This document shows, in pieces, positions 3,430 through 17,673 of a DNA stretch of 61,319 bases (positions within the stretch are counted from its first letter, which is position 1; each line of letters starts with the position of its first letter). This DNA comes from Armatimonadia bacterium. Lineage in GTDB: Bacteria > Armatimonadota > Zipacnadia > Zipacnadales > UBA11051. Where the stretch lies: assembly GCA_039683575.1 (NCBI GenBank), contig JBDKRC010000149.1, positions 1-61,319 on the forward strand, read 5' to 3'. The position numbers were made by a program, and so were the translations under genes. The notes beneath the pieces were generated by a model. It was not told the origin of the DNA, made no database searches, and was given only the letters and a program-made list of their open reading frames with translations.

Positions 3430-3859
3430 GTGTTTCTCCTAATTCGATAGGGCGGCAGCCACGCAGGCGACGTGCGGTCGGCTGAATTGACACGTGTTCG
3501 CCACGAGCGAGCCGTCTCCTGCCCCGGCACCCCAGGTGCCGGATGACGAATGCGACTTGTCGGATATTTTGGCTCATGGAAGCTAGTTCCTTCTCACCGG
3601 AAAAGGCCTTCAACCTCTATCGGAACATGGCGAAATTCACGTCCAAATCTGGCGTTTCGGCATGCGTATTTGCTCAGTTTCATCGGAAATGGCTTCTCGA
3701 GCAGGAGCCTCGCGCCGACTGGGGAAGCTTCGTCTTTTGGGGGGGGAATCTCCGCAGCGCCGCCGTGCGGGCCGCAGAGGCCACTCTCGCCTATTCAATG
3801 AATCCGTTGAATAGTGCCTTTTTGGGGCCTGTAGGACGCCGGAGAAGAGTGAAACAGTA

Positions 3860-4140
3860 GCAAAATGGCTTCAGAGGCCCGTAGAGGGCATTGTTAGCCG
3901 TTTTTGCCTTTTCGTCGAGGGCGAGCTGATCAAGTTCTGACTCTGAGAGACGGGCAGGTGTGGCGATAACATACCAACGATAGCGACATGAGTGACAGCC
4001 ACTTTTGAACAGCGCGGCGGATTGTATACAATGTGGTGTCCACGCCCTTGTTGTTGCATCGTGTTGGAGTTATCGCCATGTTTCGTCAGCACTCGTTCCG
4101 ATGACGGCAACCACCATCGTCTTATATAGAAACGATCAAG
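3860..4140 (+). other. Structured non-coding segment: long imperfect hairpin (core 3956-4083) plus flanking hairpins
   Basis: TGGCGATAAC (3961-3970) is the exact reverse complement of GTTATCGCCA (4069-4078), with colinear inner and outer helices rich in G-T pairs. Confidence 0.55.
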
Positions 4141-4328
4141 TTTGCGCGTATAGAACGTGAGGCGAAACATAGCATTTGGTGCAGGGACCGCGCGGGATGC
4201 GGAGGGGCGGGAGTCCCCGGGGGATGGCGGGTTGCGTGGTTCAGAGGAGGTAGGCGGAGGGCGGCACTCCGAGGGAGGCGAGAGGGGGCCATCGCCGAGG
4301 CAACGGCCGAGACCAGGCCATCTGCGAG

Positions 4329-7300
4329 TTACTCGCCCTGGATCATGCCAATGATCTCGTCGGCCATCGGATCCCCCAGTTCTTTGGCCTTCCGGGCCTC
4401 CTTGAGCGCCTCATCTTTCCTGCCCTCCATCAGCAGCGCCAAGGCCAGGTAGTGGCGCGGCATTGGGTCGCGCGGGTCTACTCGGATCCCCACCCGGATT
4501 GCCTTCGCCGCCTCCGCGTACTGCGCGTCATCCATGTAGTTTTTGCCGAGACCTACCCACGCCCCCACGTTGTTCGGGTCAAGCTGAAGGGCCTTCGCCC
4601 AGAGGCCTTCGGCTTTCGCGAACTCGCCGATGGCGCCTTGCGCCTGCGCTTCCTCGCTCACCTGGACGGACTGTCGTGAGGCGTCTGCTGAGACAGAGCC
4701 TTTGCCGACCCTGGCAGAGAGCTTGTCGACATCGGCCTTCGGGAAGACGGGGATTAGATCCAGGTCGGTCTGCACCGGCGGCTTCGGCTGGCCCGTAGTA
4801 GAACCAGCCGGCGTTGCGCCCCCAACCGGTGGTTTGTGCGCGGACGGTGGGCGCCCGCCCCCGGTTCCGTCGGTGAGGTTTCCACTCCCCGTCGTCGTGG
4901 GGCGTGAGGGGGCAGTGAAGCGCTCTTCGCAGAAGGCGGCTATGACCGGGGCGACATCGGTAATGCGCGGGCGTGCGGGATTGGCGACCGCCCTCTGGAG
5001 CACCTGAATCAGCTGACTTGGGTCCCCACACTTCGGCTGGGCCACCATGAAGGACATGTGCATGTCATCCATGCTCATGCTGCCATGCTGGCTCGCATAG
5101 TTGCCGCCCGTCGTGTGATAGTACTGTTCGCCTTCCACCCGCTGCTTCGCCGGTGGCGGGTAGTGCGGAAGCACCAGGATGTCCCCGCTGCGCATGCAGC
5201 TCAAGTCATCAAAGCGCTTGGCGAGAAAGGCGATGTCTTCCGGAGTATTCTGCCATCCCAGCCGCACCCCGAAGGCATTGCCGGTCCGCCCCAGATATGA
5301 CTCCGGGTTCTCGAGTTGTGGTACTCCCGAGCCTTGGATCGGGACAACCACCGAATAGCGACCATTCCACCCATCGCGTTCGGTGTTCCGAACAAGCACG
5401 AGGTCGAAGTGGGGGTTGGGACCGATCTCCTTCGGTGGAAACTGAATCAGGTTCGCCTTCGCGATCTGGTTGGCCGTGTCAAGCACCCGTGCAAAGGGTG
5501 GCGGCTCAGCCCACCGCCTGCCGCAATTCGGATCCTCTTTTGCGCTCACGGCATTCACATATACGTGCGCCAGGCCGCCATTCAGGCGCACCACCACGTC
5601 GGACTTGTCGATGTCTTTGTCCTTGTCCCACATCGCGTATTCAGGCCCCAGAAACCACCGCCACTGCTCCCAGCCAATGTCACGAGCGTTCCTCGTGTCC
5701 GTGTGTCCGTGATCGCTCGCGAGCATGAAAATGGTACCGGGATAGTCATCGAAGAAATCCAGCACCGGCTTCAGCAAAGAATCGATACGGTCGCGGTACT
5801 CCGCCAACTGCTTGAGGTAGATGTCCTGGTCCACCTTGTGGCTGTAATGGTCCACGCCCGGCAGGTAGACCCAGATGATGGACGGCCACTGTTCTGCCCG
5901 CACCGGCTTCTCACCCGTTGGGTGCAGTAGCCGGAGTCGCTTCATGAGCTCTTCCTGCGCGTTCCGGTCATACCAGTGCGTGGTCATGGCCGGCAGGAAG
6001 GTAATCTGGTCAATCACGTCCCCCCGTATCCAGTCCTTGTCGGGCACACCCGCCGCGTACTGGTGGAAGATCGACAGCACCGGAAAGAGCATGTTCCGGC
6101 GTCGTATTTCCTCATAGATGGTCGGTGCTGTCAGCAGTTTGCTCGCCAAGCCCTCCTGGTAGACAGCGGACGCATCAGCTGCGAACACCACTCCGCCCTC
6201 TGACCCATCAAGGCCGTAGTTGCGCGCGCTTGAGCGGTCAAAGAAGGCGTTGCCCACGATGCCATGGATGCCTGGCTCCACGCCCGTGACGAATGAGGCC
6301 TGGGCAGGAAAAGTGTAGGACGGGAAGGTGGTGATCGCCTTGTCGAGCAGCACCCCGTTCTGAAACCCCGTCATGGCCAGCCCGCCGCCTGTCCGGTTCC
6401 CCGTGCGCTTGCCCAGCAGCCGCACCAGGTTGGTCGCCGTCCCCACGGGGTCGGTGCCCTCCACCAGGTGCGCCAGCACATCCGCCCGCAATCCATCCAC
6501 ATCCAGCACCACCACCAGCGGGTGTACTGCGAACCTGCCAATGCTCTTGACGCCATCTTTGTCCGTTACAGTGATGTCACGTTCACCCAAAGGCGCGTTC
6601 GCCGCGACCTTCAGATAGCAGTGCAGTCCATACACCCGCCCCAGGGGCCGGCTCGTGTCCGGCTCGTTGATCTGGTCAGCAGAGCGATACTGTTCGATCC
6701 CGGGCCCGAAGTCCGCTCGCCCCTCCCTGATTGGCGAGTCGCCAAGCAGTTCCATCTCGAGCTTTGTTGCGGGCCCGGCCCAATGCGGCTGCGCTTCCAG
6801 CTTCTGGGCCTTCGGCTCACAGATCCCCTTTTCCGCAAACAGGCTGTGGATTTTGGGCGCCATGGCTCTCACTTCGTTCAAAGCCCTCGCCGCGTAGGCG
6901 TCCGACCCACCGAAGCCCGCGCTACCGCCGCCGGCCCGCCAGGTAAGCTTCAGCCAGACGTAACCGCAGCGCCAGGTGGCGGTAGAACCGGAGTCGTAGT
7001 ACGTGTATCCGGCATCGTCCTTCGTCCTCATAAACTCGGCCATGGGACCGTGAGCACCGAGGTTCTTGATCCAGCGGTCAAACTCCGCCTTCTCGGCAGT
7101 GGCGCTGGTGCCTACCTCCACCTGCGTCAGAATGAACTTGGTCTCACCAGCCGCCAGATCCTCTCTGGGACTGTCAGTCCACCAGTCGATGTGGTCGGCG
7201 TGTTGGTAGCGCACGGGCGCTGTGGTCGGCATACCCAGAGTGGCGAGGGCCGCCCGCGCACGTTCGCACACATCCCTGGCCTCGTTCTCGGTTAGATCGG

Positions 7301-7391
7301 CGCGGACGGGGAGACAGCACACCAGGAGCATGATAGGCAGGAGGCACAAGAGCACACTGGGGAAGCGACAGGAGAAGCTGATTTGAGGCAC
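4329..7391 (-). CDS. Secreted nucleotide pyrophosphatase/type I phosphodiesterase (alkaline phosphatase superfamily) with C-terminal TPR
   Basis: Motifs VVLDVDGLR, TFPSYTFP (Thr nucleophile), TG..P..HGIVGN, DHYSH, SDHGH and QHG, then a Pro/Thr linker and TPRs. Likely GTG start at 7391 after GAGGAG with a signal peptide; the track's 7817 start is an artefactual extension. Confidence 0.85.
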   Translation of the reverse strand: MPQISFSCRFPSVLLCLLPIMLLVCCLPVRADLTENEARDVCERARAALATLGMPTTAPVRYQHADHIDWWTDSPREDLAAGETKFILTQVEVGTSATAEKAEFDRWIKNLGAHGPMAEFMRTKDDAGYTYYDSGSTATWRCGYVWLKLTWRAGGGSAGFGGSDAYAARALNEVRAMAPKIHSLFAEKGICEPKAQKLEAQPHWAGPATKLEMELLGDSPIREGRADFGPGIEQYRSADQINEPDTSRPLGRVYGLHCYLKVAANAPLGERDITVTDKDGVKSIGRFAVHPLVVVLDVDGLRADVLAHLVEGTDPVGTATNLVRLLGKRTGNRTGGGLAMTGFQNGVLLDKAITTFPSYTFPAQASFVTGVEPGIHGIVGNAFFDRSSARNYGLDGSEGGVVFAADASAVYQEGLASKLLTAPTIYEEIRRRNMLFPVLSIFHQYAAGVPDKDWIRGDVIDQITFLPAMTTHWYDRNAQEELMKRLRLLHPTGEKPVRAEQWPSIIWVYLPGVDHYSHKVDQDIYLKQLAEYRDRIDSLLKPVLDFFDDYPGTIFMLASDHGHTDTRNARDIGWEQWRWFLGPEYAMWDKDKDIDKSDVVVRLNGGLAHVYVNAVSAKEDPNCGRRWAEPPPFARVLDTANQIAKANLIQFPPKEIGPNPHFDLVLVRNTERDGWNGRYSVVVPIQGSGVPQLENPESYLGRTGNAFGVRLGWQNTPEDIAFLAKRFDDLSCMRSGDILVLPHYPPPAKQRVEGEQYYHTTGGNYASQHGSMSMDDMHMSFMVAQPKCGDPSQLIQVLQRAVANPARPRITDVAPVIAAFCEERFTAPSRPTTTGSGNLTDGTGGGRPPSAHKPPVGGATPAGSTTGQPKPPVQTDLDLIPVFPKADVDKLSARVGKGSVSADASRQSVQVSEEAQAQGAIGEFAKAEGLWAKALQLDPNNVGAWVGLGKNYMDDAQYAEAAKAIRVGIRVDPRDPMPRHYLALALLMEGRKDEALKEARKAKELGDPMADEIIGMIQGE

Positions 7392-7452
7392 GGGCGGCAC
7401 ACTCCTCGGCAGGCAATGGAGCAGCGACTCGGGCTGCGGCTGACTACGTGTT

Positions 7453-7689
7453 TCACCAAGTACAAGTGACGTTTCCAGGGGGATACGAGTTGGGCGAAGC
7501 GAAGCGTGGTCTGACGGTAACGTCACCTCGCGCGGCCACCGCGAAGCGCACAAACGGCTCCAGCGCGTACTGGTACCATTGCAGCGTCGTAGGCGTGGAT
7601 TGGCGCAGACGGCACTCACAGGGGAACTCGGAAACGGCGACCGGAAGGGGGAGCGGAATGGCGCTTTGGGGAGTGAGGGCGAGGGGCAT
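7453..7689 (-). pseudogene. Truncated tyrosine recombinase relic (N-terminal fragment only)
   Basis: LPVAVSEFPCECRLRQSTPTTLQWYQYALEPFVRF aligns by eye with LSPALDDFLADAQLRGLSPKTVEWYRYALGPFLQW (16485-17453) and DDFLQDLSIRQYSPYTINWYRSILSPFVRF (15086-16126). No catalytic domain follows. Confidence 0.8.
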
Positions 7690-7720
7690 TGCAGGCCACT
7701 CCAACGCCCCGAAGGTTCCG

Positions 7721-7736
7721 AACCTTGCGAACCTAA
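7721..7736 (+). promoter_or_regulatory. Accessory att-associated motif, copy 1 (AACCTTGCGAACCTAA)
   Basis: Identical to 7959-7974 and one mismatch to 17487-17502; ends 92 bp left of the att repeat. Confidence 0.65.
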
Positions 7737-7784
7737 CGGCCATTTGGGCCATTGTCGGGAGGGTAACCCAGAAGCCAGAACCAA

Positions 7785-7818
7785 AGAAAATGGCTCTGCA
7801 GAAGTCTGCAGGGCCATT
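7785..7818 (-). terminator. Intrinsic terminator-like hairpin downstream of the tRNA 3' duplicate
   Basis: AATGGCTCTGCAG/CTGCAGGGCCATT stem followed by a T-rich run on the minus strand; similar to the hairpin at 17553-17586. Confidence 0.7.
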
Positions 7819-7827
7819 CAGAGTACT

Positions 7828-7873
7828 TTGGTAGCGCGGAGAGGATTCGAACCTCTGACCTCAAGGTTATGAG
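7828..7873 (-). repeat. att direct repeat (3' half of tRNA-Met, anticodon loop to CCA)
   Basis: 46 bp identical to 17596-17641, extending to 53 bp with one mismatch (7874 g vs 17642 c). Confidence 0.97.
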
Positions 7874-7958
7874 GCTTGCGCACCATCGAAAGGGCAGAAT
7901 GCCGCTAATGGGGCGCTGTGGGGCAGCAAGCGCCTTTGGGCCTGAGAATAATCAGGCA

Positions 7959-7974
7959 AACCTTGCGAACCTAA
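7959..7974 (+). promoter_or_regulatory. Accessory att-associated motif, copy 2 (AACCTTGCGAACCTAA)
   Basis: Starts about 85 bp inside the element's left att repeat; identical to 7721-7736. Confidence 0.65.
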
Positions 7975-8113
7975 TTCTCCGCAAACTGGGGTCTCACCTT
8001 CTTCATCGAATGATAAGGCCAAAGGAGAATAGGCAGGCAAAAGCGAATATCACATCCAGCGACCATCTTCTGCCGTGGTAATCGCGTCCGTGGCACCGAG
8101 GGGGAATGAGCGT

Positions 8114-8587
8114 ATGCCCTCGAAAGCAAAGCTGGGGATACCGCTGCCGTTAGGTTGTCCCTGCGTCTGGTTTCCCCTTCTTCTCATCACTGTCTTCGTC
8201 GTCGTTGGGATACACTCGCTTCTCTCCCCGTATTCCCGTAAGGCCGAGCGCTGCGCTCGTGATTACCTGGAGTATCTGCAACACCCGAATGAGCCGCGCC
8301 GGGATGTTGCTATCAGCGCCGTTGACAAAGCGGGGCGGAACCATTGGAAGGTACGTGGGACAGACTGCCCTGGCCTTCCCCAATACATGGAATGGCGGGA
8401 CTACCTTGAGGCCAAGCGTGTACTGACCAAGGAGTTCACCATTGAGGTCTATCGTATCCCACAAGGGCAATCTTTCTACGTGCGAGACTCTTCTCGGCGA
8501 GGCCACCACCGCGAACGCGGACCTGCCTGGATGGTTTCTTTCCCTTCCCAACGGGGTCCAGTTTGTAAGGATCAGGTCTTCCAGTAA
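8114..8587 (+). CDS. Hypothetical membrane-anchored protein (element cargo)
   Basis: ORF with one N-terminal hydrophobic helix; ATG at 8114 follows GAGGGG. No recognisable family. Confidence 0.55.
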   Translation: MPSKAKLGIPLPLGCPCVWFPLLLITVFVVVGIHSLLSPYSRKAERCARDYLEYLQHPNEPRRDVAISAVDKAGRNHWKVRGTDCPGLPQYMEWRDYLEAKRVLTKEFTIEVYRIPQGQSFYVRDSSRRGHHRERGPAWMVSFPSQRGPVCKDQVFQ

Positions 8588-8639
8588 CAGCAAGCCCCTT
8601 GAACTCGCTCACGGCACGGACAGCGGACACAGCAAGCGA

Positions 8640-9323
8640 TTACTCGACATCCCCAAGTCGCAGCGGCTCTTGTGGCATCCAATCGGGATGAGACCTGATC
8701 ACCCAATCTGCTTCATACTGCTTAAAGCGACGAAAGACGGCGATCCCAGGACGAGCGCGTACAGTCTCGCCCCAAATGGTGAAGCTGTAATCACCGGGAG
8801 CGAGTTCCACAGTTAAAGTCTCGAAGGGGGGTATGGATACGGTTCGAGAGACAGGGCCAACGAACGCGACCGTCACGGTCTCAGGTGAGGAGTTGGTCAT
8901 AACGATCTTGGGTTGTTCCTGGGCAATAGGGGTCTCGACAAAAGGCGACTTCTCGGGCAGTGGCGCGACGGGCATAGGCGGAGGCGTTTGTGAGACCAGC
9001 GGAGGACCCTCTGGAAGTGGCGGGACCGCCCAACGAACTGGGGCGTCTGGCGACTTTTGGGCGAGAGGGGCAGATGGCTCCATGCCCTCCGGTTGCGATG
9101 CAGACTGTGGGGGTAAAGAGACAATAAGACTCTTGGTGATTTGGTCAACCTGATCTGGCTTCGGTGCCTGCGGTGGCTGCCTGAACCCCACAAGCGGCGC
9201 GATTGGTCGCCGCACACCAGCAAGATGGCAGTACGTGAACCCCAAAGCATTGGCGGAAACCACCAGTACCAACAAGCCGATCACAGCACGACGATCATTC
9301 ACGCCATTTCCTAAAGGTGCCAT
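8640..9323 (-). CDS. Hypothetical membrane-anchored protein with Pro-rich linker and C-terminal beta-sandwich-like domain
   Basis: TM helix, Pro-rich stretch, then IVMTNSSPETVTV...TVELAPGDYSFTI. Start uncertain (9323 after GAGAGG, or 9356). Confidence 0.7.
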   Translation of the reverse strand: MAPLGNGVNDRRAVIGLLVLVVSANALGFTYCHLAGVRRPIAPLVGFRQPPQAPKPDQVDQITKSLIVSLPPQSASQPEGMEPSAPLAQKSPDAPVRWAVPPLPEGPPLVSQTPPPMPVAPLPEKSPFVETPIAQEQPKIVMTNSSPETVTVAFVGPVSRTVSIPPFETLTVELAPGDYSFTIWGETVRARPGIAVFRRFKQYEADWVIRSHPDWMPQEPLRLGDVE

Positions 9324-9460
9324 ACTGAAACCTCTCGCCTGGCCCTTGGTTGGCATAGTGCTTCCACGCAGTCTCCCTTTTTCAGGCACGAAACACCGGA
9401 CCACGTTCAGTGCCAAGTCTCAGCGGCTCATCCGGGCATCCAACTCGGACGAGACGTGAT

Positions 9461-10789
9461 TCAGGGCTGACTCAACACCCTACGGGCATTGTTCGTGTGA
9501 GCTGAAGCAGACGTCCAGGCCGCTTGCACTATCTCAATAATCAGCAGTTCATAGCTGTACCCGGCGTTGTTAAACGGATTGGGCATAGCGCGAGCCTTAC
9601 TCTTTAGCCAAGGATAGCGGCCAACGGCGCGAGACACCTCCGTAGCATCCCATGAAATCGAGTATTGGACATGGTCAGAGGACCTGAATTCCCACGACCA
9701 CGCCTCCTGTGCAAACACGTAATCATCAAGTGCAGCGCTTGCTTCAGACCAGAAGGTTGTGCCTCCGAATTGGGTTGCATTGGCTGATCGGTCGAATTTC
9801 TGCTTCGCCGGGATAACGTAATCGGCGTATTTGGCATAGCTAATGCCAACATCACACGCTGCGGAAATGTCGTTCAGCGCGTTAAGGGCCTCCTCGCGCT
9901 GGTAGGTATCCTGAACCATTCGGGTACTGGTAGCGGTGCGGCTGGGTTCACTGCTTGCCGAGGATGGACCGTTGGCACTACTCGAACGGGCAGACTGCGG
10001 AGGTGCGGTGGCCTGTTGCGCATCCCGCGCGGGGTTTCCTGATTTAGCTCTTCTTCGGGCGGGAGGTGGTGCCTGCCCTGGTGTTTGCTGTGGCGCAGAA
10101 GACGCTTCTTCGCGAGCGTTGGGCGTCGCGTGGGGACGATGTCCCCGACGTCCGACCATGAGCCCGAACGTCGCGCCGAAGACCAGAACCAATGCCAGCG
10201 CTGCCCCAAGTGCCCACATAGGAATGCCGAGAAAGCCTGATCCATGCCTGATCTCTGTGTTGGGGGTGAAGTGTTCTCTTAGGCAGGTTCCGCACAATCC
10301 CTCGTTCTCGTCGGAAACTACTATAGGTATCTTGCGACGACACTGGCGACAGTAGACTGGAGTGTCGGATTCCGGCGCAGGCTCTGCCGCAGGGAACTGC
10401 TGCACAGCAGGGACTTGCTCCGCTTCCGGGCCGGTCTCCTTTTGCAGTTTGGCAATTTCGACTTGCGCTCTTGTGTAAGTTGGATCAAGCCGCAGTGCAC
10501 GTCGCTGCGCTTCCCCCGCCTCCTTCGGCGACCCCATCTTGCGAAGAATCGTTCCAAGGTTACACCATGCCAAAGCAGATTGGGGTCGCAGACGAGTAAC
10601 CTGCGTGGCGGCCATCCGTGCTGGCAGCCAGTGGCGAAGGTCAAAATGAACTTTCGCAAGCAGTTCCCACGCTGCCGCATCCTCGGGATGGTCATTCGTC
10701 CAAGCGACCATCTGCCGAATTGCTTCCGCTGGTTTCCCCGCGTCTACAAGAGCATTGGCTTCCTGAAGCACATTCTGGGTGTTTGACAC
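9461..10789 (-). CDS. TPR + Zn-ribbon (CRQC...CGTC) + single-TM protein with external helical domain
   Basis: N-terminal TPRs (AWCNLGTILRKMG), a CxxC pair, a TM helix and a low-complexity linker. GTG start follows GGGGAG. Confidence 0.8.
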   Translation of the reverse strand: MSNTQNVLQEANALVDAGKPAEAIRQMVAWTNDHPEDAAAWELLAKVHFDLRHWLPARMAATQVTRLRPQSALAWCNLGTILRKMGSPKEAGEAQRRALRLDPTYTRAQVEIAKLQKETGPEAEQVPAVQQFPAAEPAPESDTPVYCRQCRRKIPIVVSDENEGLCGTCLREHFTPNTEIRHGSGFLGIPMWALGAALALVLVFGATFGLMVGRRGHRPHATPNAREEASSAPQQTPGQAPPPARRRAKSGNPARDAQQATAPPQSARSSSANGPSSASSEPSRTATSTRMVQDTYQREEALNALNDISAACDVGISYAKYADYVIPAKQKFDRSANATQFGGTTFWSEASAALDDYVFAQEAWSWEFRSSDHVQYSISWDATEVSRAVGRYPWLKSKARAMPNPFNNAGYSYELLIIEIVQAAWTSASAHTNNARRVLSQP

Positions 10790-10880
10790 GATCCATCACT
10801 CCCCCTGTCCTGCGGATTCGATAGTAGGCGGATATATCCGTCTCGCCTTTGTCGGGAACTGAGGTTCTGCTTCGCGGCCT

Positions 10881-11426
10881 TCAATATCCAGGATAGCCCG
10901 CCTTGTCCATCAGCGTTCCGAAGGCTTCCACGCAAGACTGCGCCAACTTTGGAAAAGTGGTTCGGGCCTCGTCAACGTTGCCGCCGCTGAAACGGATTTG
11001 ACCTGTCGTCTGCGTAGCGCCGGCCTGCAGGTTGTATGCCCAGCAGTTAGTCATCTCCCGCGTTGCCATCCATACATAGAACGTAGGCATTCCTACCATA
11101 AGGGAGTTTTTAGTGGTTGCTGGGGCACAGAACAGCTTCCATGCCTGCAGTTCGATGCCATACCAAGCCTGGGTCTGAGTAGCGATAGCAGTATAACCTT
11201 CCGCTGTGCCTGCTTTGCCTTCACCGATGATGGTCTGCATAATGGGAATTCCAGCCTCGAATTGTGGCTTCACATATTCACTGACGAAGCTGTCTAGCGG
11301 TGCCCTAATGCTGGCCGCTTCGCGCTCAGCCTTGGCCTCAAAACCTGGGGTGGGGACGTAGACCTGAGCAAACAAGCAGTGCTGTACGGCACAGAGCACA
11401 TATGCCAGCAGTAGAGTCCTTTTCAT
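10881..11426 (-). CDS. Hypothetical secreted protein
   Basis: MKRTLLLAYVLCAVQHCLFA signal-like N-terminus after a GGGAGGA RBS; the track's longer start is unlikely. Confidence 0.7.
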   Translation of the reverse strand: MKRTLLLAYVLCAVQHCLFAQVYVPTPGFEAKAEREAASIRAPLDSFVSEYVKPQFEAGIPIMQTIIGEGKAGTAEGYTAIATQTQAWYGIELQAWKLFCAPATTKNSLMVGMPTFYVWMATREMTNCWAYNLQAGATQTTGQIRFSGGNVDEARTTFPKLAQSCVEAFGTLMDKAGYPGY

Positions 11427-11769
11427 AATCAATTCCTCCCGCTTCCGAGTGTTGCGCCTCATACACGGCAGACTCCCCCATCCAATAGAGACCGAGGCCG
11501 ACCTATGCCGGGAACATCTGGAAGGCAACGGGGGCGCTCTTCCCCCGATGATGGTTGTTTTTCGCCGTGTATCTCGGCATTCCCTCTTTTGCTCGCATTG
11601 GTTGCTGACAGAGAACCCAGAAACCTCTGAGTCGTCCCCGATGGTTCTTACACTTCTTTGCCTCTCCAAATGACACTCAACCCCCCGGTCCCCTTTCGTC
11701 ATGTCTCCCGAGACGGCGAATACGCCCACCGGGGCAGTTGACGGCAGGCCGCCCCCAACTAACGATAAA

Positions 11770-11814
11770 AGTGCTAAAGCACTGTTGACAAACACTGCCC
11801 GTATCTGCTATGAT
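11770..11814 (+). promoter_or_regulatory. Sigma70 promoter of the serine recombinase with an adjacent palindrome
   Basis: TTGACA (11785-11790), 18 bp spacer, extended -10 TGcTATGAT (TATGAT at 11809-11814). AGTGCT-AA-AGCACT at 11770-11783. Confidence 0.75.
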
Positions 11815-11847
11815 GGGAGACACTGAAATGAGAGGTTGGAGACCACT

Positions 11848-12669
11848 ATGAAGCGCGCTGCCGGGTATCTAAGGGTCAGTACCGCGACGCAGGCTGAGCA
11901 TGGCCTGGGCCTGGACATTCAGCGAGAGGCCATTACCGAATACTGCCAACAACAGGGCTTTGTACTGGTGGACTGCTACGAGGACGCGGGCGTTAGCGGC
12001 GCTAATGGTATTGAGGACCGGGAGGCATGGCCGCAACTGGTGGACGCCTTGGAGCAGAAGGCATTCTCCGTCGTCATTGTGCTGCGCCTGGACCGTCTGG
12101 CGCGTGATCTTATGCTGCAGGAGACGATGCTGGGGAACGTGCAGGAGCTAGGCGGGGAACTGATCTCGATAGACGAGCCTGACCTCTGCGACGGAGACCC
12201 TACCAGAACGATGTTCCGCCAGATCAAGGGGGCCATTTCTCAATACGAGAAGGTCATGATCGTTACGCGCCTGAAGGCAGGGCGGCGCAAGAAGGTCCGG
12301 CAGGGCGGCTATTCTGGGGGATGGTTGCCGTATGGCTACAGTGCTGAAGGCCAGGGGCCTGACGCGAAGCCGGTAGTGGACGGGGCTGCTGCCGCGATTG
12401 TGAGGCGGATATTTGCAGATTACGCGAAGGGCAATAAGAGCATGAAGCAGATCGCCCTGGAGCTAACTGCCGCCGAGGTACCGACTGCCCGAGGCGGACA
12501 GTGGGCGCAAGCGACCGTGCAGGCAATCTTGTCTAACCCCTTCTATACGGGACAGGTGGACGAAGAGGGCCGGGTTCCCAGAAAAGGATATGAGGCGGTT
12601 GTCACTAAGCGCCTCTTCAATAGATGTCAGCGGAGGATGGAAGAGGCGCGGCGGGGGCCATCCAAGTGA
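11848..12669 (+). CDS. Serine recombinase (resolvase catalytic domain + Recombinase DNA-binding domain; no Zn-ribbon/coiled-coil tail)
   Basis: Motifs GYLRVST, YEDAGVSG, RLDRLAR, GGWLPYGY, IVRRIF, GGQW..ATVQAILSNPFYTG. Confidence 0.93.
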   Translation: MKRAAGYLRVSTATQAEHGLGLDIQREAITEYCQQQGFVLVDCYEDAGVSGANGIEDREAWPQLVDALEQKAFSVVIVLRLDRLARDLMLQETMLGNVQELGGELISIDEPDLCDGDPTRTMFRQIKGAISQYEKVMIVTRLKAGRRKKVRQGGYSGGWLPYGYSAEGQGPDAKPVVDGAAAAIVRRIFADYAKGNKSMKQIALELTAAEVPTARGGQWAQATVQAILSNPFYTGQVDEEGRVPRKGYEAVVTKRLFNRCQRRMEEARRGPSK

Positions 12670-12999
12670 TTTTCATTCGGGAATCGAGCGCCGTTGGCGC
12701 GTCTCCGTCCGCGCAGGTTAGGATTTCACCAGTTATTCAGGGCTTTCGGCGCACGAGTGTTATCCTGAGAATGACGCACAATACTGTCGGACGCAGTCTG
12801 ACCCCATAGCTTTTCAGGCCCGGCATTACTATCAGTTGTAGTAGTATGGTCTCAGCTTACAGGTTACCGCCCCAATACGCGGGGGGCTTAGCTGGTAGGC
12901 CAAACTCCCTTTCCTGCTCATCCTGACGCACTAGGAAGCACATCTATTGATCTTCCAGGACTGAGGCGAGCGTCACCTTTACAAAGTGCACAAGTTGCC

Positions 13000-14076
13000 T
13001 CAGTTGGCTTTCTGTAGTGTGGATGGACGCGAAGAGCGTCGAATTCCTCCAGCACTGTCTTCAGACACAGTACGCAGGTGTCTGCACATGGTAAACTGGT
13101 TAATATTCTTGTGTGCAGACTGTAACGCCTCTACGGCTGAGGCAATTCTCGCCAAGGGATAGCTTTCTGCCAGTTTTATCGCGACCGGCGTCTTGATCCC
13201 GAAGGCAAATAGCAGACGGAACGCTTCTTCCTCCTCAGGGGTCAGCCCCTCGACGGTAGTTTTCGTTCGCTCGCGGCCCGTTGCCGTCTGCCGTATGTAC
13301 TCGACAGTAAAAGCAGAAGGACCCCACTGATCGGGGGACCCTTCGGTACTGGCTATCTTCGTCTCGTGGCCGTTCGTCGTCTGTCGTGAGGAAGCAGAAA
13401 GAGAAGAATCAGAAGAACAATTTTGCAGGCGAGACTGCTCTCTATCTTCTTTCTTTATCTCTTTCTCATCTAACGTCTCTCTCGGCTGCCAACCGGGTGG
13501 ACTGAGGCGACTTCTGGGCAGCATGCCTTGATGCGCTCCGACTGCCGCACGGCACTGAGATTCAGGGGGTCTTGCGGCGTCACTGCCTAACCCAGCGGGA
13601 GAGCCACAGGCAACCATAGAGATATTGCCGGGTTGCTCAGTCTGATACTCCTGTTGCTCGCTCTTTGCCTCAGGTTGCCCATTAGAGGCCTGCGGTTGCT
13701 CAGACTGGCGTTGGTATCTTGTGCCATCATTCCACTTACGGAAACCGACGACGCGGTAGTAGATGCTGCCACGAATTTCGACTCGTTCAATGAACCCTGT
13801 GCTGGTAAGGGATTTGAAGGCCTTGCAGATAGTGGTCTTGCTCCAGCCCGTTATTTCTCCTATCTGCTTCTGTGTCATAGGTCCCTGCCCCGCGTTACGG
13901 AGACAGCCTAGATAGCGCTCGCTTGTGGGGCGTTCGTCTCTCCAGGCGAGCAGTAGGCAGTTATCTAGGAGAACCCGGTCACGAAGGGAGAGCGCTTTCA
14001 CTGCCGGGTCAAACAGCATTGGTACTGGCATTCTGAAGTAGGGTGTGCGTTTTGGCTCGTTCGTACTATGGTCCAT
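13000..14076 (-). CDS. Phage/plasmid-type wHTH replication initiator-like protein
   Basis: HTH (MTQKQIGEITGWSKTTICKAFKSLTSTGFIE), central heptad repeats and a KEIKKE tract, an architecture typical of lambda O/DnaD-like initiators. Confidence 0.65.
   Translation of the reverse strand: MDHSTNEPKRTPYFRMPVPMLFDPAVKALSLRDRVLLDNCLLLAWRDERPTSERYLGCLRNAGQGPMTQKQIGEITGWSKTTICKAFKSLTSTGFIERVEIRGSIYYRVVGFRKWNDGTRYQRQSEQPQASNGQPEAKSEQQEYQTEQPGNISMVACGSPAGLGSDAARPPESQCRAAVGAHQGMLPRSRLSPPGWQPRETLDEKEIKKEDREQSRLQNCSSDSSLSASSRQTTNGHETKIASTEGSPDQWGPSAFTVEYIRQTATGRERTKTTVEGLTPEEEEAFRLLFAFGIKTPVAIKLAESYPLARIASAVEALQSAHKNINQFTMCRHLRTVSEDSAGGIRRSSRPSTLQKAN
13631..13707. repeat. Four iteron-like repeats at exact 21-bp spacing inside the rep-like gene
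   Basis: GTTGCY starts at 13632, 13653, 13674 and 13695; the outer copies are GGTTGCTCAGTCTG and GGTTGCTCAGACTG. Confidence 0.65.
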
Positions 14077-14365
14077 ATTCGTTCATCTCTTTTTGCGAGT
14101 CATCCAAAGTGATCCCCTCCGATGAGGGGTGGTCTAGCAGTGCGACGGAGACTGAAGTGTTCAGAGGTACCTTGGTGGGGCGCGGCTGAGGGAATGAAGG
14201 GGAGTTCTCTTGAGGCATCTGCGGGACGCGATTCTCCTGAGCGGAGACTCTTGATAGCTCCAAGTGCGCGGCATAGGTGGGGAAGCGGGAGACGATGGTG
14301 GTCGAGGAGAGGCTTCGCCGTGCGGCGAAAGCGCGGCAGGAAAGTACGCGGCAACAGAGACCCAC

Positions 14366-14394
14366 TTGCGCTCGCCTGCGGCCTGCAGTAGTAT
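14366..14394 (+). promoter_or_regulatory. Candidate antisense sigma70 promoter
   Basis: TTGCGC-N17-TAGTAT, followed by the perfect 14-bp palindrome TGTTGTGCACAACA (14396-14409). Confidence 0.5.
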
Positions 14395-14400
14395 GTGTTG

Positions 14401-14467
14401 TGCACAACAACTGTTCTTCAGTTGTAGGCCCCCGGTCTGTTGCCGCAGGTCGGGGGTCGTTCTTTCT
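14401..14467 (+). ncRNA. Candidate ~65-nt countertranscript (antisense RNA) to the rep leader
   Basis: Promoter upstream, a 7-bp hairpin (14407-14425), a 13-bp hairpin with 3 G-U pairs (14427-14458), then GTTCTTTCT. Confidence 0.45.
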
Positions 14468-14547
14468 GGGGGCGGATCAGTCAATATTCGGCCTCCCGAA
14501 ATCGCCGTCAGCTAGATGCCTGGTCCAGAGAATGGCATAGTGGACTA

Positions 14548-14964
14548 TCACTGCCAGTCACCATCCGGGAAGCTTGGCATATGGCCGAATAGCCCTTTCT
14601 CACGTTCATGCCATTCGCCGCGTTCAGTGAGACCGGCATCCACTATTCGTTCGACATCGTACAGCATCAGCGCCATCCCGGTGTTCAGGTGTCGCTGAAA
14701 GGCAACCTCGGGAGGTTCCAGGCCATCGTGCAGATCGTTCACAATGCGCCGGATGTCTGACGGCCATAGCTCCTTGTGCTCGTAGTCGTCGCTGCCCCAA
14801 CTTTCCTCCCAGTAGTTCCCCTCAATGTGCCGTTTCCATCCCTCGCCATCGTGTTCATCGCAGCATGGCTCCCACCGCCGACCGGCAACTTCAATGTTGC
14901 AGTCTTCGTCAATGATCGTCACGCCTCTATACTCGTACGGCAACTCAATTCTCTTCCTGAACAT
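14548..14964 (-). CDS. Hypothetical acidic, Trp-rich protein
   Basis: ATG at 14964 after a strong GGGAGGTG RBS; co-oriented with the integrases and rep. Confidence 0.65.
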   Translation of the reverse strand: MFRKRIELPYEYRGVTIIDEDCNIEVAGRRWEPCCDEHDGEGWKRHIEGNYWEESWGSDDYEHKELWPSDIRRIVNDLHDGLEPPEVAFQRHLNTGMALMLYDVERIVDAGLTERGEWHEREKGLFGHMPSFPDGDWQ

Positions 14965-15085
14965 CGCCAACACCTCCCTATTGTGTCGCCAGTGCGGTTG
15001 GTGCCAATCATGACGCACCGCAAGGCTTCAGACCTACGTATAGTCTCCATATCGAGCGGCGCGAAGTCAATGGCCCTGGCACACT

Positions 15086-16126
15086 CTAGCTGCACTTCCA
15101 TTCTGGAATCATCTTCATACGCCGCTGCCTGCTCAGCGGTAGGTCCATCGTGTGAAGAGGGCTGAGTTCCCTTTGGCGACTTATGGCATCCTCGTCGGCG
15201 ACCTCGCAGTATCGGCGCGTCATTTCGAGGGAGCTATGACCGAGAATGCGCTGGAGGTAGAAGGCGTCGCCGCCACTACGGATGAAGTTCACGGCATGTG
15301 TGTGTCGTAGGGTGTGCGGTGATACTCGGACGCCGCTTATTCCCGCCTTATCGCCGTACGCTCGCATCCTCACCTGAAACGCTTTCGGCGTCAGCTTCCC
15401 GCCGATGTCATTGGGGAACAGCCAGGGCGAGCCTCCCATGCCAATCCCCTCCAGTGCCTTCGCTCGATTCTGACGATATGCTTCAAGCTCATTCAGCATC
15501 CGACTGGATATGCCAACAACGCGCTCTTTGTTGCCCTTCCCCAGTGCCTTGACCGTCGCCTGTCCGAGGTCGAGGTCGGGTAGCTGCAGACTGAGTGTCT
15601 CAGACAGTCGCAGACCTGTATCGAGAAGCAGCATCATGAAGCAGAAGTCGCGGAGACCAACAAAGAGGTGAATTGGCGGCTGATCGAGGAGAGCCTTGAT
15701 CTGCGTCGAGGTGAGGGTGGCAATGATCTTGCGGCCCTCGCGAGCTTTCGCCACATGCTCCCACGGGTTCGCGGTTGCGTAGTCGTGCTCCAAGAGCCAC
15801 CGCCAGAAGAGGTGCAGGCCGTCGCGGTAGTCATTCTGGCGCTTCGCGCCAAGTGGCCCACGACCACTTGCGCCGTGTAGGCTGATGTCGGCTATGAAAC
15901 CTCGGGCGAGCACTTCGTCAACGCGTGAAGGCAAACACTTGCTGCCATCGTCACCCAGAAAGCGGACAAACGGCGACAGGATACTTCTATACCAGTTGAT
16001 CGTATACGGGCTGTACTGACGTATTGAAAGGTCCTGCAGGAAATCGTCAGAGGCTTCAGTCCATCCCGGCCATCCCGCAGAATTGGCGGTGACGAGTCTT
16101 AGGCGAGTGCTGGGGCTGTTGTGCAT
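15086..16126 (-). CDS. Tyrosine recombinase/integrase, paralog B (XerC/D-like size)
   Basis: LDTGLRLSE, GKGNKER, HTLRH, LGHSSLEMTRRY: complete R-K-HxxR-H-Y catalytic set. Confidence 0.95.
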   Translation of the reverse strand: MHNSPSTRLRLVTANSAGWPGWTEASDDFLQDLSIRQYSPYTINWYRSILSPFVRFLGDDGSKCLPSRVDEVLARGFIADISLHGASGRGPLGAKRQNDYRDGLHLFWRWLLEHDYATANPWEHVAKAREGRKIIATLTSTQIKALLDQPPIHLFVGLRDFCFMMLLLDTGLRLSETLSLQLPDLDLGQATVKALGKGNKERVVGISSRMLNELEAYRQNRAKALEGIGMGGSPWLFPNDIGGKLTPKAFQVRMRAYGDKAGISGVRVSPHTLRHTHAVNFIRSGGDAFYLQRILGHSSLEMTRRYCEVADEDAISRQRELSPLHTMDLPLSRQRRMKMIPEWKCS

Positions 16127-16417
16127 GGTCGTCCGCACCCCTTTTCGAGGGGGAAGCTTCGCAGGTGGATGACGTATTCAACAGGCACGGAGCGCTGAAA
16201 GTAGCGCTGGCAGACCTGGAGGCGAGAAGCGTCAGGCAAATTACCAGCACCACAAGCAGACCCCAGAGGGGGCGTCTCCAAGCCCAAATTGAATGTTCGA
16301 TCATAACACTTGTCCACGAGACTTCAGTTTTCTGTGACAGTACCATTAGGTTTACTATAGTGAAGCGGACGACAAGACATACACATATCGCACTATTAGG
16401 TAGCAAGGCTGCAAACC

Positions 16418-16446
16418 AGCGTATTGCTCGTGCCACGGGAAGTCAA
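16418..16446 (-). promoter_or_regulatory. Candidate sigma70 promoter for paralog B and downstream genes
   Basis: Minus strand TTGACT-N17-TACGCT in the AT-rich spacer between the two recombinases. Confidence 0.4.
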
Positions 16447-16484
16447 TAGCGTAGGGATGATTCCGGCCCGACCACAAAGTTTTG

Positions 16485-17453
16485 TCAACGGAGCCGCCCG
16501 CCGTCCGTCAAGTTGACGCTTCCTGCCGCCAGAGGACTGAGTTCCCTTTGCTTTGTCAGGAAGTCCACGTCTGCGAGTTCGCAGTACCGACGTGACATAT
16601 CGAGGCTCGTGTGTCCGAGAATCTTCTGCAGGTGGAAAGGGGACCCGCCGTTGCGAACGAAGTACAGGGCGAAGGTATGCCTGAAGGTATGGGGACTGAC
16701 ACGGACGCGCCTGATCTGCGCCTGTTGTGCGTACAGTTTCAGCCGCATCTGCAGAGCCTTGGCGGTACACTTGCCTGCCACATTGCTGGGAAAGAGCCAC
16801 TGGCAGTTGCCGTAGCCGTTCTGCCCGAGTACCTGTCGCCGAGATTGAAGGTATTTACGCAGATGTCTTTCCAGGACAGGTGAGAAGCCCGCGACGCGCT
16901 CCCGGTTGCCTTTGCCCATGACCCGCAGGGTTCCGCGAGTCAGGTCAAGGTCATCCAGAGTCAGCGAAAGTGCCTCGCTGAGACGGACTCCCGTGTCCAA
17001 GAGCAGCAGCATGAACAAATGGTCCCTCTGCCCGAGGAGTGTTCGGCGATCCGGCTTAGACAATAGGGCCTGCAGTTCTTCTTCAGTGAAGGTGGGAACA
17101 AGCTTCCGGGGCTCCCGTATCTTGCCAATTCCTGCGGTGGGGTTCGCGGTAAGGTCGCCAGTGCGCACCAGCCACTGGCAGAAGCGGTCAATGGCTTCGC
17201 GGTAGTGGTTCAGCCTGCGCGCCCCAACGCCGTCACGAGACGCGAGGAACTGACGAATGGTAGCTTCCTTCAGGTCATCTGCTGAATGGCAGTCTCGCTC
17301 ATTCAGCCATTGCAGAAAGGGTCCCAAAGCGTAGCGGTACCATTCGACGGTCTTGGGGCTGAGGCCCCGCAGTTGGGCATCGGCGAGAAAGTCATCAAGG
17401 GCGGGGGAGAGACTGGCGGAGGGGGTGATTTCGCATCGCAACAGGTGGGACAT
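16485..17453 (-). CDS. Tyrosine recombinase/integrase, paralog A (tRNA-proximal)
   Basis: LDTGVRLSE, GKGNRER, HTFRH, LGHTSLDMSRRY; ATG at 17453 after GGGAGG. Confidence 0.95.
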   Translation of the reverse strand: MSHLLRCEITPSASLSPALDDFLADAQLRGLSPKTVEWYRYALGPFLQWLNERDCHSADDLKEATIRQFLASRDGVGARRLNHYREAIDRFCQWLVRTGDLTANPTAGIGKIREPRKLVPTFTEEELQALLSKPDRRTLLGQRDHLFMLLLLDTGVRLSEALSLTLDDLDLTRGTLRVMGKGNRERVAGFSPVLERHLRKYLQSRRQVLGQNGYGNCQWLFPSNVAGKCTAKALQMRLKLYAQQAQIRRVRVSPHTFRHTFALYFVRNGGSPFHLQKILGHTSLDMSRRYCELADVDFLTKQRELSPLAAGSVNLTDGGRLR

Positions 17454-17486
17454 AATCGGTGCCTCCCGAATCACCAAAACCCGACG

Positions 17487-17502
17487 AACCTTGCGAAGCT
17501 AA
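17487..17502 (+). promoter_or_regulatory. Accessory att-associated motif, copy 3 (AACCTTGCGAAGCTAA)
   Basis: Ends 94 bp from the att repeat and lies just upstream of the integrase A RBS. Confidence 0.65.
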
Positions 17503-17552
17503 TCGCAGTTTTCAGGGGCTGGTGACTGTTCAGCACTTGCCGCCCACAAACG

Positions 17553-17586
17553 AAAAATGGCCCCAGAGAGCATCCTGGGGCCATTT
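17553..17586 (-). terminator. Intrinsic terminator after the tRNA, supplied by the element
   Basis: 12-bp stem AAATGGCCCCAG/CTGGGGCCATTT ending in a T-run on the minus strand. Confidence 0.8.
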
Positions 17587-17596
17587 CGGGTAAACT

Positions 17597-17673
17597 TGGT
17601 AGCGCGGAGAGGATTCGAACCTCTGACCTCAAGGTTATGAGCCTTGCGAGCTACCGGGCTGCTCCACCGCGCG
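17597..17673 (-). tRNA. tRNA-Met(CAT), initiator type
   Basis: CGCGCGGTGGAGCAGCCCGGTAGCTCGCAAGGCTCATAACCTTGAGGTCAGAGGTTCGAATCCTCTCCGCGCTACCA: cloverleaf, CAT anticodon, unpaired 1:72 and encoded CCA. Confidence 0.97.

Follow-up and report, generated by a model that had tools for sequence, protein, structure and literature searches.

What kind of mobile element occupies a tRNA-Met gene of an Armatimonadia bacterium, if recombinases and an initiator-like gene lie between two copies of the tRNA 3′ half and genes for transfer are not recognizable there? The stretch studied here (the window) is the whole 61,319-bp contig JBDKRC010000149.1 of a metagenome-assembled genome (MAG) of 6.2 Mb (GenBank assembly GCA_039683575.1; Armatimonadota, Zipacnadia, Zipacnadales, UBA11051 in GTDB), and the element lies between positions 7828 and 17641. 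The first-pass annotation, made from the letters alone, had described a compact element in the 3′ half of a tRNA gene, with intact recombinases and without recognizable transfer machinery, and this description is supported. Based on sequence comparisons, we read it as a 9768-bp integrative, plasmid-like and probably active element, a cargo-carrying, tycheposon-like island, a reading that we hold with slightly better than even confidence.

Borders of the element and its paired tyrosine recombinases

The element is bounded by a 53-nt direct repeat with one mismatch (7828–7880 and 17596–17648, spacing 9768 bp), which overlaps tRNA-Met(CAT), the only tRNA gene in the window (17597–17673, minus strand; ARAGORN; Rfam, 61 bits). 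The exact part of the repeat comprises 46 nt (7828–7873 and 17596–17641) and, read in the tRNA sense, opens at base 1 of the anticodon loop (CTCATAA), passes the T arm and the acceptor strand, and ends one base beyond CCA; the 46-bp repeats 9768 bp apart and their reach to the anticodon loop, both claimed earlier, are borne out by the repeat search and by reading of the sequence. The tRNA bears a C1xU72 mismatch and an A11:U24 pair, and two of the three anticodon-stem G-C pairs are present. The first two features we take to be identity elements of initiator tRNAs, and the label “fMet” is based on them. The GC content is 0.570 between the repeats and 0.634 in the rest of the contig. The features of the two ends are as follows.

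7513–7713, minus strand: remnant, the first ~67 codons of another IntA-type integrase, outside attL, with its own 18-nt motif and a tRNA-terminator-like hairpin (tblastn)
7828–7873, no strand: attL core, left copy of the exact 46-bp repeat, identity continuing to 7880 with one mismatch (repeat search)
7957–7974, plus strand: the 18-nt motif again, in the arm away from int and at a distance of 84 bp from the core (motif search; equivalent in locus L015)
15086–16138, minus strand: IntB, paralogous tyrosine recombinase (Pfam, 5.8e-33; 45% identity to IntA)
16485–17477, minus strand: IntA, Xer-like tyrosine integrase, inward-facing, adjoining the tRNA (Pfam, 5.7e-30; homologs near tRNA-Met)
17485–17502, plus strand: 18-nt motif CGAACCTTGCGAAGCTAA, located between IntA and the attR core; it may be an arm-type integrase site or an operator of int
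17596–17641, no strand: attR core, right copy of the exact 46-bp repeat (repeat search)
17597–17673, minus strand: tRNA-Met(CAT), intact, initiator-like, its 3′ part being the attachment core on the attR side (ARAGORN, Rfam, sequence reading)

Family scans covered 16 larger and 22 small open reading frames (ORFs) with Pfam, and 13 ORFs with PHROGs and NCBIfam. IntA and IntB are each full length, with a Phage_integrase catalytic domain (PF00589) and an N-terminal SAM-like domain in Pfam; their NCBIfam matches are XerC/XerD-like and stay below the cut-off, and the R..K..HxxR..H..Y positions can be read by eye in both. The full domains and catalytic positions confirm the two intact tyrosine recombinases of the first-pass annotation. 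No capsid, terminase, tail, relaxase, secretion, coupling-protein, primase, helicase or loader family was found in the scans, and the earlier statement that virion and conjugation genes are missing holds.

Transcription of IntA runs from attR and the tRNA into the element, with the initiator-like gene rep358 located 2.4 kb further in and the envelope-type ORFs at the far end. The 18-nt motif, with the consensus CGAACCTTGCGAACCTAA, occurs in three copies in the window (0.01 expected), the third one being outside the element at 7719–7736. In loci L014 and L016 it is kept between tRNA-Met and the IntA homolog, and L015 has it upstream of an att fragment. In the circular form of the element the copies at 17485 and 7957 would flank the core at ~90 bp on each side in the same orientation, which would be the layout of arm-type sites.

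Homologs of IntA with 55–57% identity are found directly downstream of tRNA-Met in G009 (L014), G026 (L016/L022) and the GTDB locus L021, and one follows a tRNA fragment in the same-genus genome G002 (L015). IntB homologs accompany them at four loci in three other genomes, being full length in L014 and represented by fragments or contig ends in L015, L016 and L023; as this adjacency recurs, the pair seems to be a module rather than an accident. The homologs in relatives are convergent and 17–80 bp apart, whereas the window pair is in tandem with a 346-bp spacer. The spacer contains no att remnant (best local score 20, shuffle mean 19.0, maximum 28), and no convincing inverted repeats that might make IntB invertible are seen around it. 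Among named records, those most similar to IntA come from MAGs of Armatimonadota and Dehalococcoidia. A literature search for paired tyrosine recombinases on tRNA islands returned nothing specific.

A hairpin downstream of the tRNA (AAATGGCCCCAG...CTGGGGCCATTT, 17554–17596) is situated within the element at attR; the same hairpin follows tRNA-Met in integrase-free relatives (L018–L020), and a diverged form is seen outside attL at 7788–7827. The element hence brings its own tRNA 3′ half together with a terminator. The remnant at 7513–7713 has 58% identity to the IntA homolog of G002 (tblastn and alignment, E = 3e-17), and the combination of an integrase remnant and its motif outside attL indicates that the site held an earlier occupant, the present element being in tandem with a decayed predecessor. 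A 1162-aa ORF (4329–7817, minus strand; phosphodiesterase and TPR protein) crosses the remnant and the tRNA-terminator-like hairpin in another frame; its first ~165 codons are probably a spurious extension, and a signal-like MLLVCCLPVRADL start is found further in.

A DNA search against 60 relatives recovered the tRNA in most of them, the peptidase gene of the right flank in many, and IntA/IntB-like DNA in few; none of the matches listed falls in window positions 7881–15140. Apart from the integrases, no gene of the element has a relative at the tRNA/IntA loci of related genomes or at 53 GTDB integrase loci. Loci in which tRNA-Met lacks an IntA-type gene next to it do occur (L017–L020); they give no strict empty site, since synteny of the flanks with the window is not conserved. 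In the same genus, locus L015 (G002:C120:155000–174000) has an array at 6400–11200, ~55 kb from an intact tRNA-Met, composed of two att fragments (the first with the 18-nt motif), an integrase fragment limited to the SAM domain, a complete IntA homolog and, convergent to it, a C-terminal piece of IntB.

An initiator-like gene and a serine recombinase of short form

In its middle part the element contains the genes for two proteins, Rep358 and Ser277, transcribed convergently.

11785–11814, plus strand: sequence most like a sigma-70 promoter within the element (TTGACA-18-TG-TATGAT, 11 of 12; a consensus match only), in front of Ser277
11836–12669, plus strand: Ser277, short serine recombinase with Resolvase and Recombinase domains, putative resolvase (Pfam, length-matched relatives)
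13000–14076, minus strand: Rep358, putative replication initiator, in which a disordered Q/E-rich linker joins an N-terminal winged helix (residues 7–125) to a small C-terminal domain
13631–13714, no strand: four 21-bp phased repeats with the core KGTTGCYC in the linker-coding part of the Rep358 gene, candidate iterons or origin

Rep358 is a member of a very rare winged-helix family. An exhaustive HMMER search identified 13 other relatives at E ≤ 1e-3 among 1.84 billion representative proteins, and a word-index search returned only Rep358 itself. Two of the relatives are fusions with replication domains: P0003 combines Prim-Pol and PriCT_1 with the Rep358-type domain, and P0013, the helix-bundle domain (HBD) of the NrS-1 polymerase with it. 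The nearest relative is P0002 (773 aa), whose residues 94–394 align with residues 8–327 of Rep358. In 401 genomes of the phylum, clear members are present only in the genome of the window itself, that is, Rep358 and, on contig C235, a paralog of 454 aa (E = 3e-10), which is directly followed by a DnaC/IstB-like helicase loader; the remaining matches are weak generic helix-turn-helix ones over 35–60 columns. The N-terminus of Rep358 has weak matches to MarR_2/TrmB-type Pfam families. Among PHROGs, the protein weakly matches “DnaD-like helicase loader” (E = 5e-8) and “replication initiation O-like” (E = 6e-6), and it matches neither RepA_N nor Phage_rep_O of Pfam at E ≤ 0.01.

In the AlphaFold (AF2) model, residues 20–120 have pLDDT above 90, residues 130–235 are disordered, and the C-terminal domain is moderately confident. 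Foldseek yielded no match at E ≤ 0.001. VIA-align gives tied winged-helix matches of the N-domain at Z 6–7.5, generic MarR-type proteins included, the longest alignments being those with the N-terminal domain of DnaD (107 residues at Z 7.0) and with RepA, the initiator of pSK41 (100 residues at Z 7.1); for the C-terminal domain there is nothing but one helical row. The modeled structure is thus compatible with an initiator and is not diagnostic.

The C235 paralog is situated in a second integrated region of the same genome (G000:C235; L094 7848–14897, also L175 and L176), which encodes a tyrosine integrase, Vsr, Dcm, a 338-aa ORF, the paralog, the DnaC-like loader and a 925-aa protein. Near it are a PAPS-reductase-like gene, large proteins without assignment and a 487-aa large serine recombinase. 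No virion genes were found in the region around the paralog, and no prophage has been identified beside it.

The first-pass annotation had spoken of an initiator-like gene with phased internal repeats, and this is borne out: four KGTTGCYC cores start at 13631, 13652, 13673 and 13694, exactly 21 bp apart (the cores span 13631–13701), directly after the part of the gene coding for the winged helix. The core occurs 11 times in the 61-kb window, which is the chance level overall, and four of the 11 form the array. A preceding test with 14-mers, present in two copies, had placed the in-gene repeats at the chance level; it was overturned by the test with the 8-mer core and by inspection. The 100 bp with the lowest GC in the element (13381–13480, 41%) are also within this gene. 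Arrays are seen in two further genes of this kind. The C235 paralog (L094) has six 21-bp units (GGGAAYC...CACCCCRTTTT) in the equivalent place, and a winged-helix gene in metagenomic locus L096 has three to four units of 23 bp (GGCGCATC...GCCAAAAAT); all three arrays begin just after the part coding for the winged helix. In 1.59 Mb of fetched DNA the background is 1.38 arrays per 100 kb (exact 6-mer, at least three copies) or 0.31 per 100 kb (5-mer, at least four copies), that is, about 0.02 or 0.004 arrays, respectively, per gene of ~1.2 kb; shuffles of the element give 0.08 arrays.

In phage lambda (O/ori-lambda), RepA_N plasmids (pSK41) and phage SPP1 (G38P), the origin lies inside the initiator gene itself. 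Rep358 appears to have the same order of parts, namely a winged helix, central phased repeats with a low-GC stretch, and a separate C-terminal domain; by sequence it is not a member of the RepA_N or Phage_rep_O families, and its matches to replication organizers among PHROGs are weak. The arrays in Rep358 and in the two other initiator-like genes agree with an origin located within the gene of the initiator. The word “replicative” of the first-pass annotation has therefore gained support, with the Prim-Pol fusions, the paralog next to a DnaC-like loader and the phased arrays in three genes all pointing in that direction.

The single serine recombinase claimed earlier is confirmed by Pfam, PHROGs and NCBIfam. 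Ser277 aligns with the first half of large serine integrases (positions 84–362 of 651 in PHROG 95), and its best longer relatives, of 490–900 aa, are 37% identical. The protein ends after the Recombinase domain (PF07508), with neither zinc ribbon nor coiled coil, and no remnant of these is found downstream. A search restricted to similar lengths (152–485 aa) yielded 2249 proteins at E ≤ 1e-3, the closest being 55–80% identical and 259–306 aa long, and an alignment of 26 sequences keeps the invariants of the catalytic domain (Y11, R13, S15, R87, R90 and others). Judged by sequence, Ser277 is a full-length member of a family of 230–306-aa proteins with Resolvase and Recombinase (PF07508) domains, this short form being the native one; the family is abundant in metagenomes, only generically annotated and undescribed-looking, and a literature search for short serine recombinases with the recombinase domain returned nothing specific. 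The same-length relatives at 55–80% identity rule out a truncated large serine integrase. A single deletion trimming the 3′ ends of both the Ser277 and Rep358 genes was likewise dropped for Ser277; Rep358 may have a shortened C-terminus.

Relatives with 98–99% coverage and ~30% identity are annotated on Bacillus plasmids of 3.5 and 4.0 kb, and in the 3453-bp plasmid the 271-aa relative is one of only two genes. Since same-length relatives occur on plasmids of 3–4 kb, a role of Ser277 in resolution is plausible, multimer resolution being the simplest reading; to this extent the plasmid-type resolution proposed in the first-pass annotation is supported.

In metagenomic contigs, relatives of Ser277 are found in small elements with replication genes (L118, L097, L120, L096). 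In L118, two perfect 83-nt copies of the whole tRNA-Leu(CAA), 9047 bp apart, bound an element of ~9 kb (781–9910); between them are genes for an integrase with 39% identity to IntA, for a D5_N/Pox_D5 primase-helicase and for a short serine recombinase with 41% identity to Ser277. Locus L097 encodes ParB together with HTH_17 and Prim-Pol-D5_N proteins. In L120 the relative is accompanied by ArdC, Prim-Pol, a D5_N helicase, tRNA-Leu and an integrase, and in L096 by the 350-aa winged-helix protein and a DUF3987 protein. Several of the metagenomic loci with Ser277 relatives (L095–L174) contain phased arrays of 18–35 bp, e.g., L095 1621–1680 and L097 7861–7920, as well as L103, L111, L112, L129 and L130, all of them possible iterons of further small replicons.

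A hairpin with 13-bp arms (12609–12649) is located right at the 3′ end of the Ser277 gene. A perfect 11-nt inverted repeat (TCAATAGATGT / ACATCTATTGA), with copies 312 bp apart and one of them at 12940–12950, spans the unusually long 330-bp gap between the convergent genes of Ser277 and Rep358. It could be a recombinase site or a pair of terminators, its frequency being about the chance level across the 2.7-kb region.

Putative cargo, the variable o156 module and occurrence in metagenomes

The remaining genes and features of the element are as follows.

8075–8587, plus strand: o170, one hydrophobic segment; an overlapping minus-strand ORF (8150–8593) is an equally good coding candidate
8640–9416, minus strand: o258, Pro-rich, one hydrophobic segment, no family match
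9461–10789, minus strand: TPR442, with TPR repeats at the N-terminus and a further domain at the C-terminus, besides a Cys-rich stretch and a single transmembrane segment
10881–11795, minus strand: o304, orphan ORF with an internal signal-like start MKRTLLL...
14427–14458, plus strand: terminator-like G+C-rich hairpin of 14 pairs followed by a T-rich run, at the boundary of the variable o156 module
14548–15018, minus strand: o156, coding-like orphan ORF between IntB and Rep358; its Atlas record begins at residue 19

Four orphan envelope genes had been proposed. The envelope part of the claim agrees with a hydrophobic segment or a signal-like N-terminus in each of them, and the word “orphan” fails for TPR442, which has a full-length relative in G030:C330 in the same order (identities of 44% and 35%), in whose vicinity there is neither an integrase nor a tRNA. 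The real product of o304 is likely ~180 aa long, starting at the internal MKRTLLL... (about 10881–11423); no match to o304 is found in 78 other genomes of the class. No match of note to defense systems was obtained with PADLOC.

The GC content of o156 by codon position is 0.65/0.38/0.66, and neither a family match (Pfam, PHROGs, NCBIfam, PADLOC) nor an Atlas neighbor was found for it. One wastewater contig matches both sides of this module, with 482 other letters replacing 14470–15102 (631 bases), and the break exactly after the hairpin at 14427–14458 suggests an exchange of modules. The candidate antisense RNA proposed earlier comes down to this one strong hairpin: Rfam has no match besides the tRNA, the fold z-scores are –1.2 (plus strand) and –0.5 (minus strand), and the claim of plasmid-type copy control by antisense RNA thus finds no support.

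Assembled contigs of four wastewater and sludge studies contain pieces of the element at 90–100% identity, one sludge/wastewater contig spanning 12442–12939, i.e., the end of the Ser277 gene with the intergenic region. As for the proposed synteny of two integrases, an ORF, the rep gene and a serine recombinase, the IntA–IntB pair recurs, and the full layout is found in no relative.

Nature of the element

Under our reading, IntA would recombine attP with the tRNA 3′ half, regenerating the tRNA, and would also excise the element, the crossover falling somewhere in the 46 identical base pairs (the anticodon loop being the probable place) and the 18-nt motifs ~90 bp on either side of the core serving as arm sites. 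The excised circle would replicate from an origin inside the rep gene: the N-terminal winged helix of Rep358 may bind the four 21-bp phased repeats and its C-terminal domain may recruit helicase-loading or priming functions of the host, by a logic like that of lambda O/ori-lambda, RepA_N plasmids or SPP1 G38P. Multimers would be resolved by Ser277, which is presumably also what relatives of equal length do on tiny plasmids; IntB may be a conserved partner, with a second site, inversion or a partner subunit as possible roles; and the four envelope ORFs would be cargo. Transfer from cell to cell would rely on outside help, such as a helper phage, a conjugative element, vesicles or transformation.

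The closest counterparts are tycheposons, defined in the preprint by a tRNA-specific inward tyrosine integrase, a small and optional replication module, cargo, partial tRNA remnants and the lack of capsid and conjugation genes (bioRxiv 10.1101/2020.12.28.424599). There they are described from marine cyanobacteria and other marine bacteria; their integrase usually belongs to a tyrosine recombinase lineage of their own, and hallmark gene profiles are common to them, a small serine recombinase being among the hallmark labels (Hackl et al., bioRxiv 10.1101/2020.12.28.424599). Cargo-carrying tycheposons share the organization of our element, in which IntA points inward from attR, Rep358 comes next and the cargo is at the far end, as well as partial tRNA copies and decayed neighbors at the same tRNA; the likeness is one of organization. 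They differ in host phylum and habitat, and in having a primase, helicase or polymerase where our element has an initiator with only a winged helix; the second, paralogous tyrosine recombinase, in turn, sets our element apart. Hence the term “undescribed family” was overstated, given that the architecture is that of the tycheposon definition and that looser metagenomic analogs exist, even if the exact layout is found in no relative. The analogs of the L118 kind are elements of ~9 kb with a tRNA-flanking Xer-like integrase, a short serine recombinase and a replication gene between them; they differ in carrying a D5_N/Pox_D5 primase-helicase (L118) or Prim-Pol with ParB and HTH_17 (L097), in the single integrase and in sharing no cargo with our element. 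Three features are unusual: the recurrent IntA/IntB pair, the rare winged-helix family with in-gene repeats, and the short serine recombinase family.

Several observations weigh against a replicating and mobile element. Rep358 is devoid of primase, helicase and loader domains and is not accompanied by a loader, none of 72,556 plasmids or 50,697 phage records contains a relative of it, and, as the alignment covers only the first half of P0002, it could be C-terminally shortened. The structure does not decide between an initiator and a regulator, since the fold matches are tied with MarR-type winged helices. The criterion of a phased array was chosen after the repeats had been seen, and the 21-bp repeats also code for a heptad peptide repeat (xEQP) in the Q/E-rich linker; because of this dual reading, a function of the repeats at the DNA level is what we infer. 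Heptad peptide repeats directly after the Rep358-type domain are visible in P0004 and P0005 as well, and the in-gene repeats of lambda O likewise code for a peptide repeat. Neither an excisionase nor an AlpA-like gene is found among the larger and small ORFs scanned with Pfam. The cargo or the exact gene order is shared by none of the 60 relatives (among the matches listed), the 53 GTDB integrase loci and 80 metagenome loci. Finally, the assembled contigs of four runs contain no joint of 7828 with 17641, no circular joint and no empty site; these contigs leave parts of the element uncovered, cannot show rare forms, and are uninformative on excision.

Much of this would also be expected of a fixed or decaying island that no longer replicates or moves, with Rep358 being a regulator or a shortened relic, the repeats a peptide linker and the recombinases leftovers. 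The lack of catalytic or loader partners of Rep358, its correspondence to half of P0002 and its generic structural matches speak for such an island, as do the missing excisionase, the decayed sister element next door, the integrase fragments common in the same-genus locus L015 and the cargo shared by no relative. We still consider it unlikely, as the 46-bp repeats are exact, the three recombinase genes are full length with intact domains, the GC content is still six points below that of the host, phased arrays are found again in two other initiator-like genes (a DnaC-like loader adjoins one of these), and variants with swapped modules exist in several studies. An accretion of two elements, in which a solo IntA was left over in front of an element with IntB, rep, Ser277 and cargo, and the 46-bp repeats bound the whole array, would explain the evident tandem occupancy of the tRNA, the extra att copies in L021 and L015, and the paralogous integrases standing in tandem here and convergently in relatives. 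The absence of an att remnant from the IntA–IntB spacer and the recurrence of the pair make this composite quite improbable.

An equally low probability is assigned to a satellite of some helper phage, which would excise and replicate upon infection and be packaged by cos or pac, its satellite genes being unrecognizable. The size, the tRNA integration, the integrase with a replication module and the lack of transfer genes fit satellites in general, and PICMI-type minimal satellites have been reported. On the other side, no terS, capsid, capsid-remodeling, AlpA/Stl/MerR-type regulator or primase-replicase gene was found, PHROG matches are limited to the recombinases and the weak replication-organizer ones, and no prophage was identified beside the C235 paralog. 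According to de Sousa et al. (2023; PMC10085698), PICIs are marked by an AlpA/MerR/Stl regulator, a primase-replicase, and a capsid-morphogenesis gene and/or a small terminase, and P4-like satellites, by an integrase and AlpA along with Psu, Delta, Sid, Ash and the alpha primase-helicase (PMC10085698). Our element resembles both in its size of nearly 10 kb and in having an integrase with a replication function; among the ORFs scanned (16 and 22 with Pfam, 13 with PHROGs and NCBIfam), the integrase is the only marker of either group, with no psu, delta, sid, ash or alpha gene, and the element does not fit the core-gene sets of PICIs and P4-like satellites. Integrative mobilizable elements are defined by a relaxase and/or oriT without a mating-pair system (PMC11389934). 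Our element is likewise integrated, small and devoid of a mating-pair apparatus; having no match to a relaxase family, it is probably not an integrative mobilizable element of the iMOB type, and it may be one with an oriT only (“iOriT”). It differs from integrative conjugative elements and prophages by the lack of matches to type IV secretion, coupling protein, capsid, terminase and tail families.

Returning to the tycheposon-like island, we put forward a broader and tentative proposal, which seems to us possible and rather doubtful. The IntA/IntB pair, a winged-helix initiator with the “GCLR” motif and in-gene iterons, and the short serine recombinase may together define a lineage of integrative plasmids that is distinct and not yet described, in Armatimonadota as well as neighboring phyla of engineered sludge, a functional counterpart of marine tycheposons. 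Its members would replicate after excision in a manner similar to RepA_N and lambda O, using only the helicase and primase of the host, and would spread without a transfer gene of their own, with IntB adding a second reaction (inversion or capture at secondary sites).

Small integrative elements with a replication module and no transfer genes are thought to form a large share of the unexplained content of bacterial “genomic islands”, and few bacterial groups are those in which they have been characterized. The element described here extends such an architecture to an uncultured phylum in wastewater sludge and offers a compact set of testable parts: the 46-bp core with candidate arm sites, the paired recombinases, the short serine recombinase and a rare initiator family. 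If Rep358 and its repeats indeed are a working minimal replicon, they might become a genetic tool for a phylum in which few are available.

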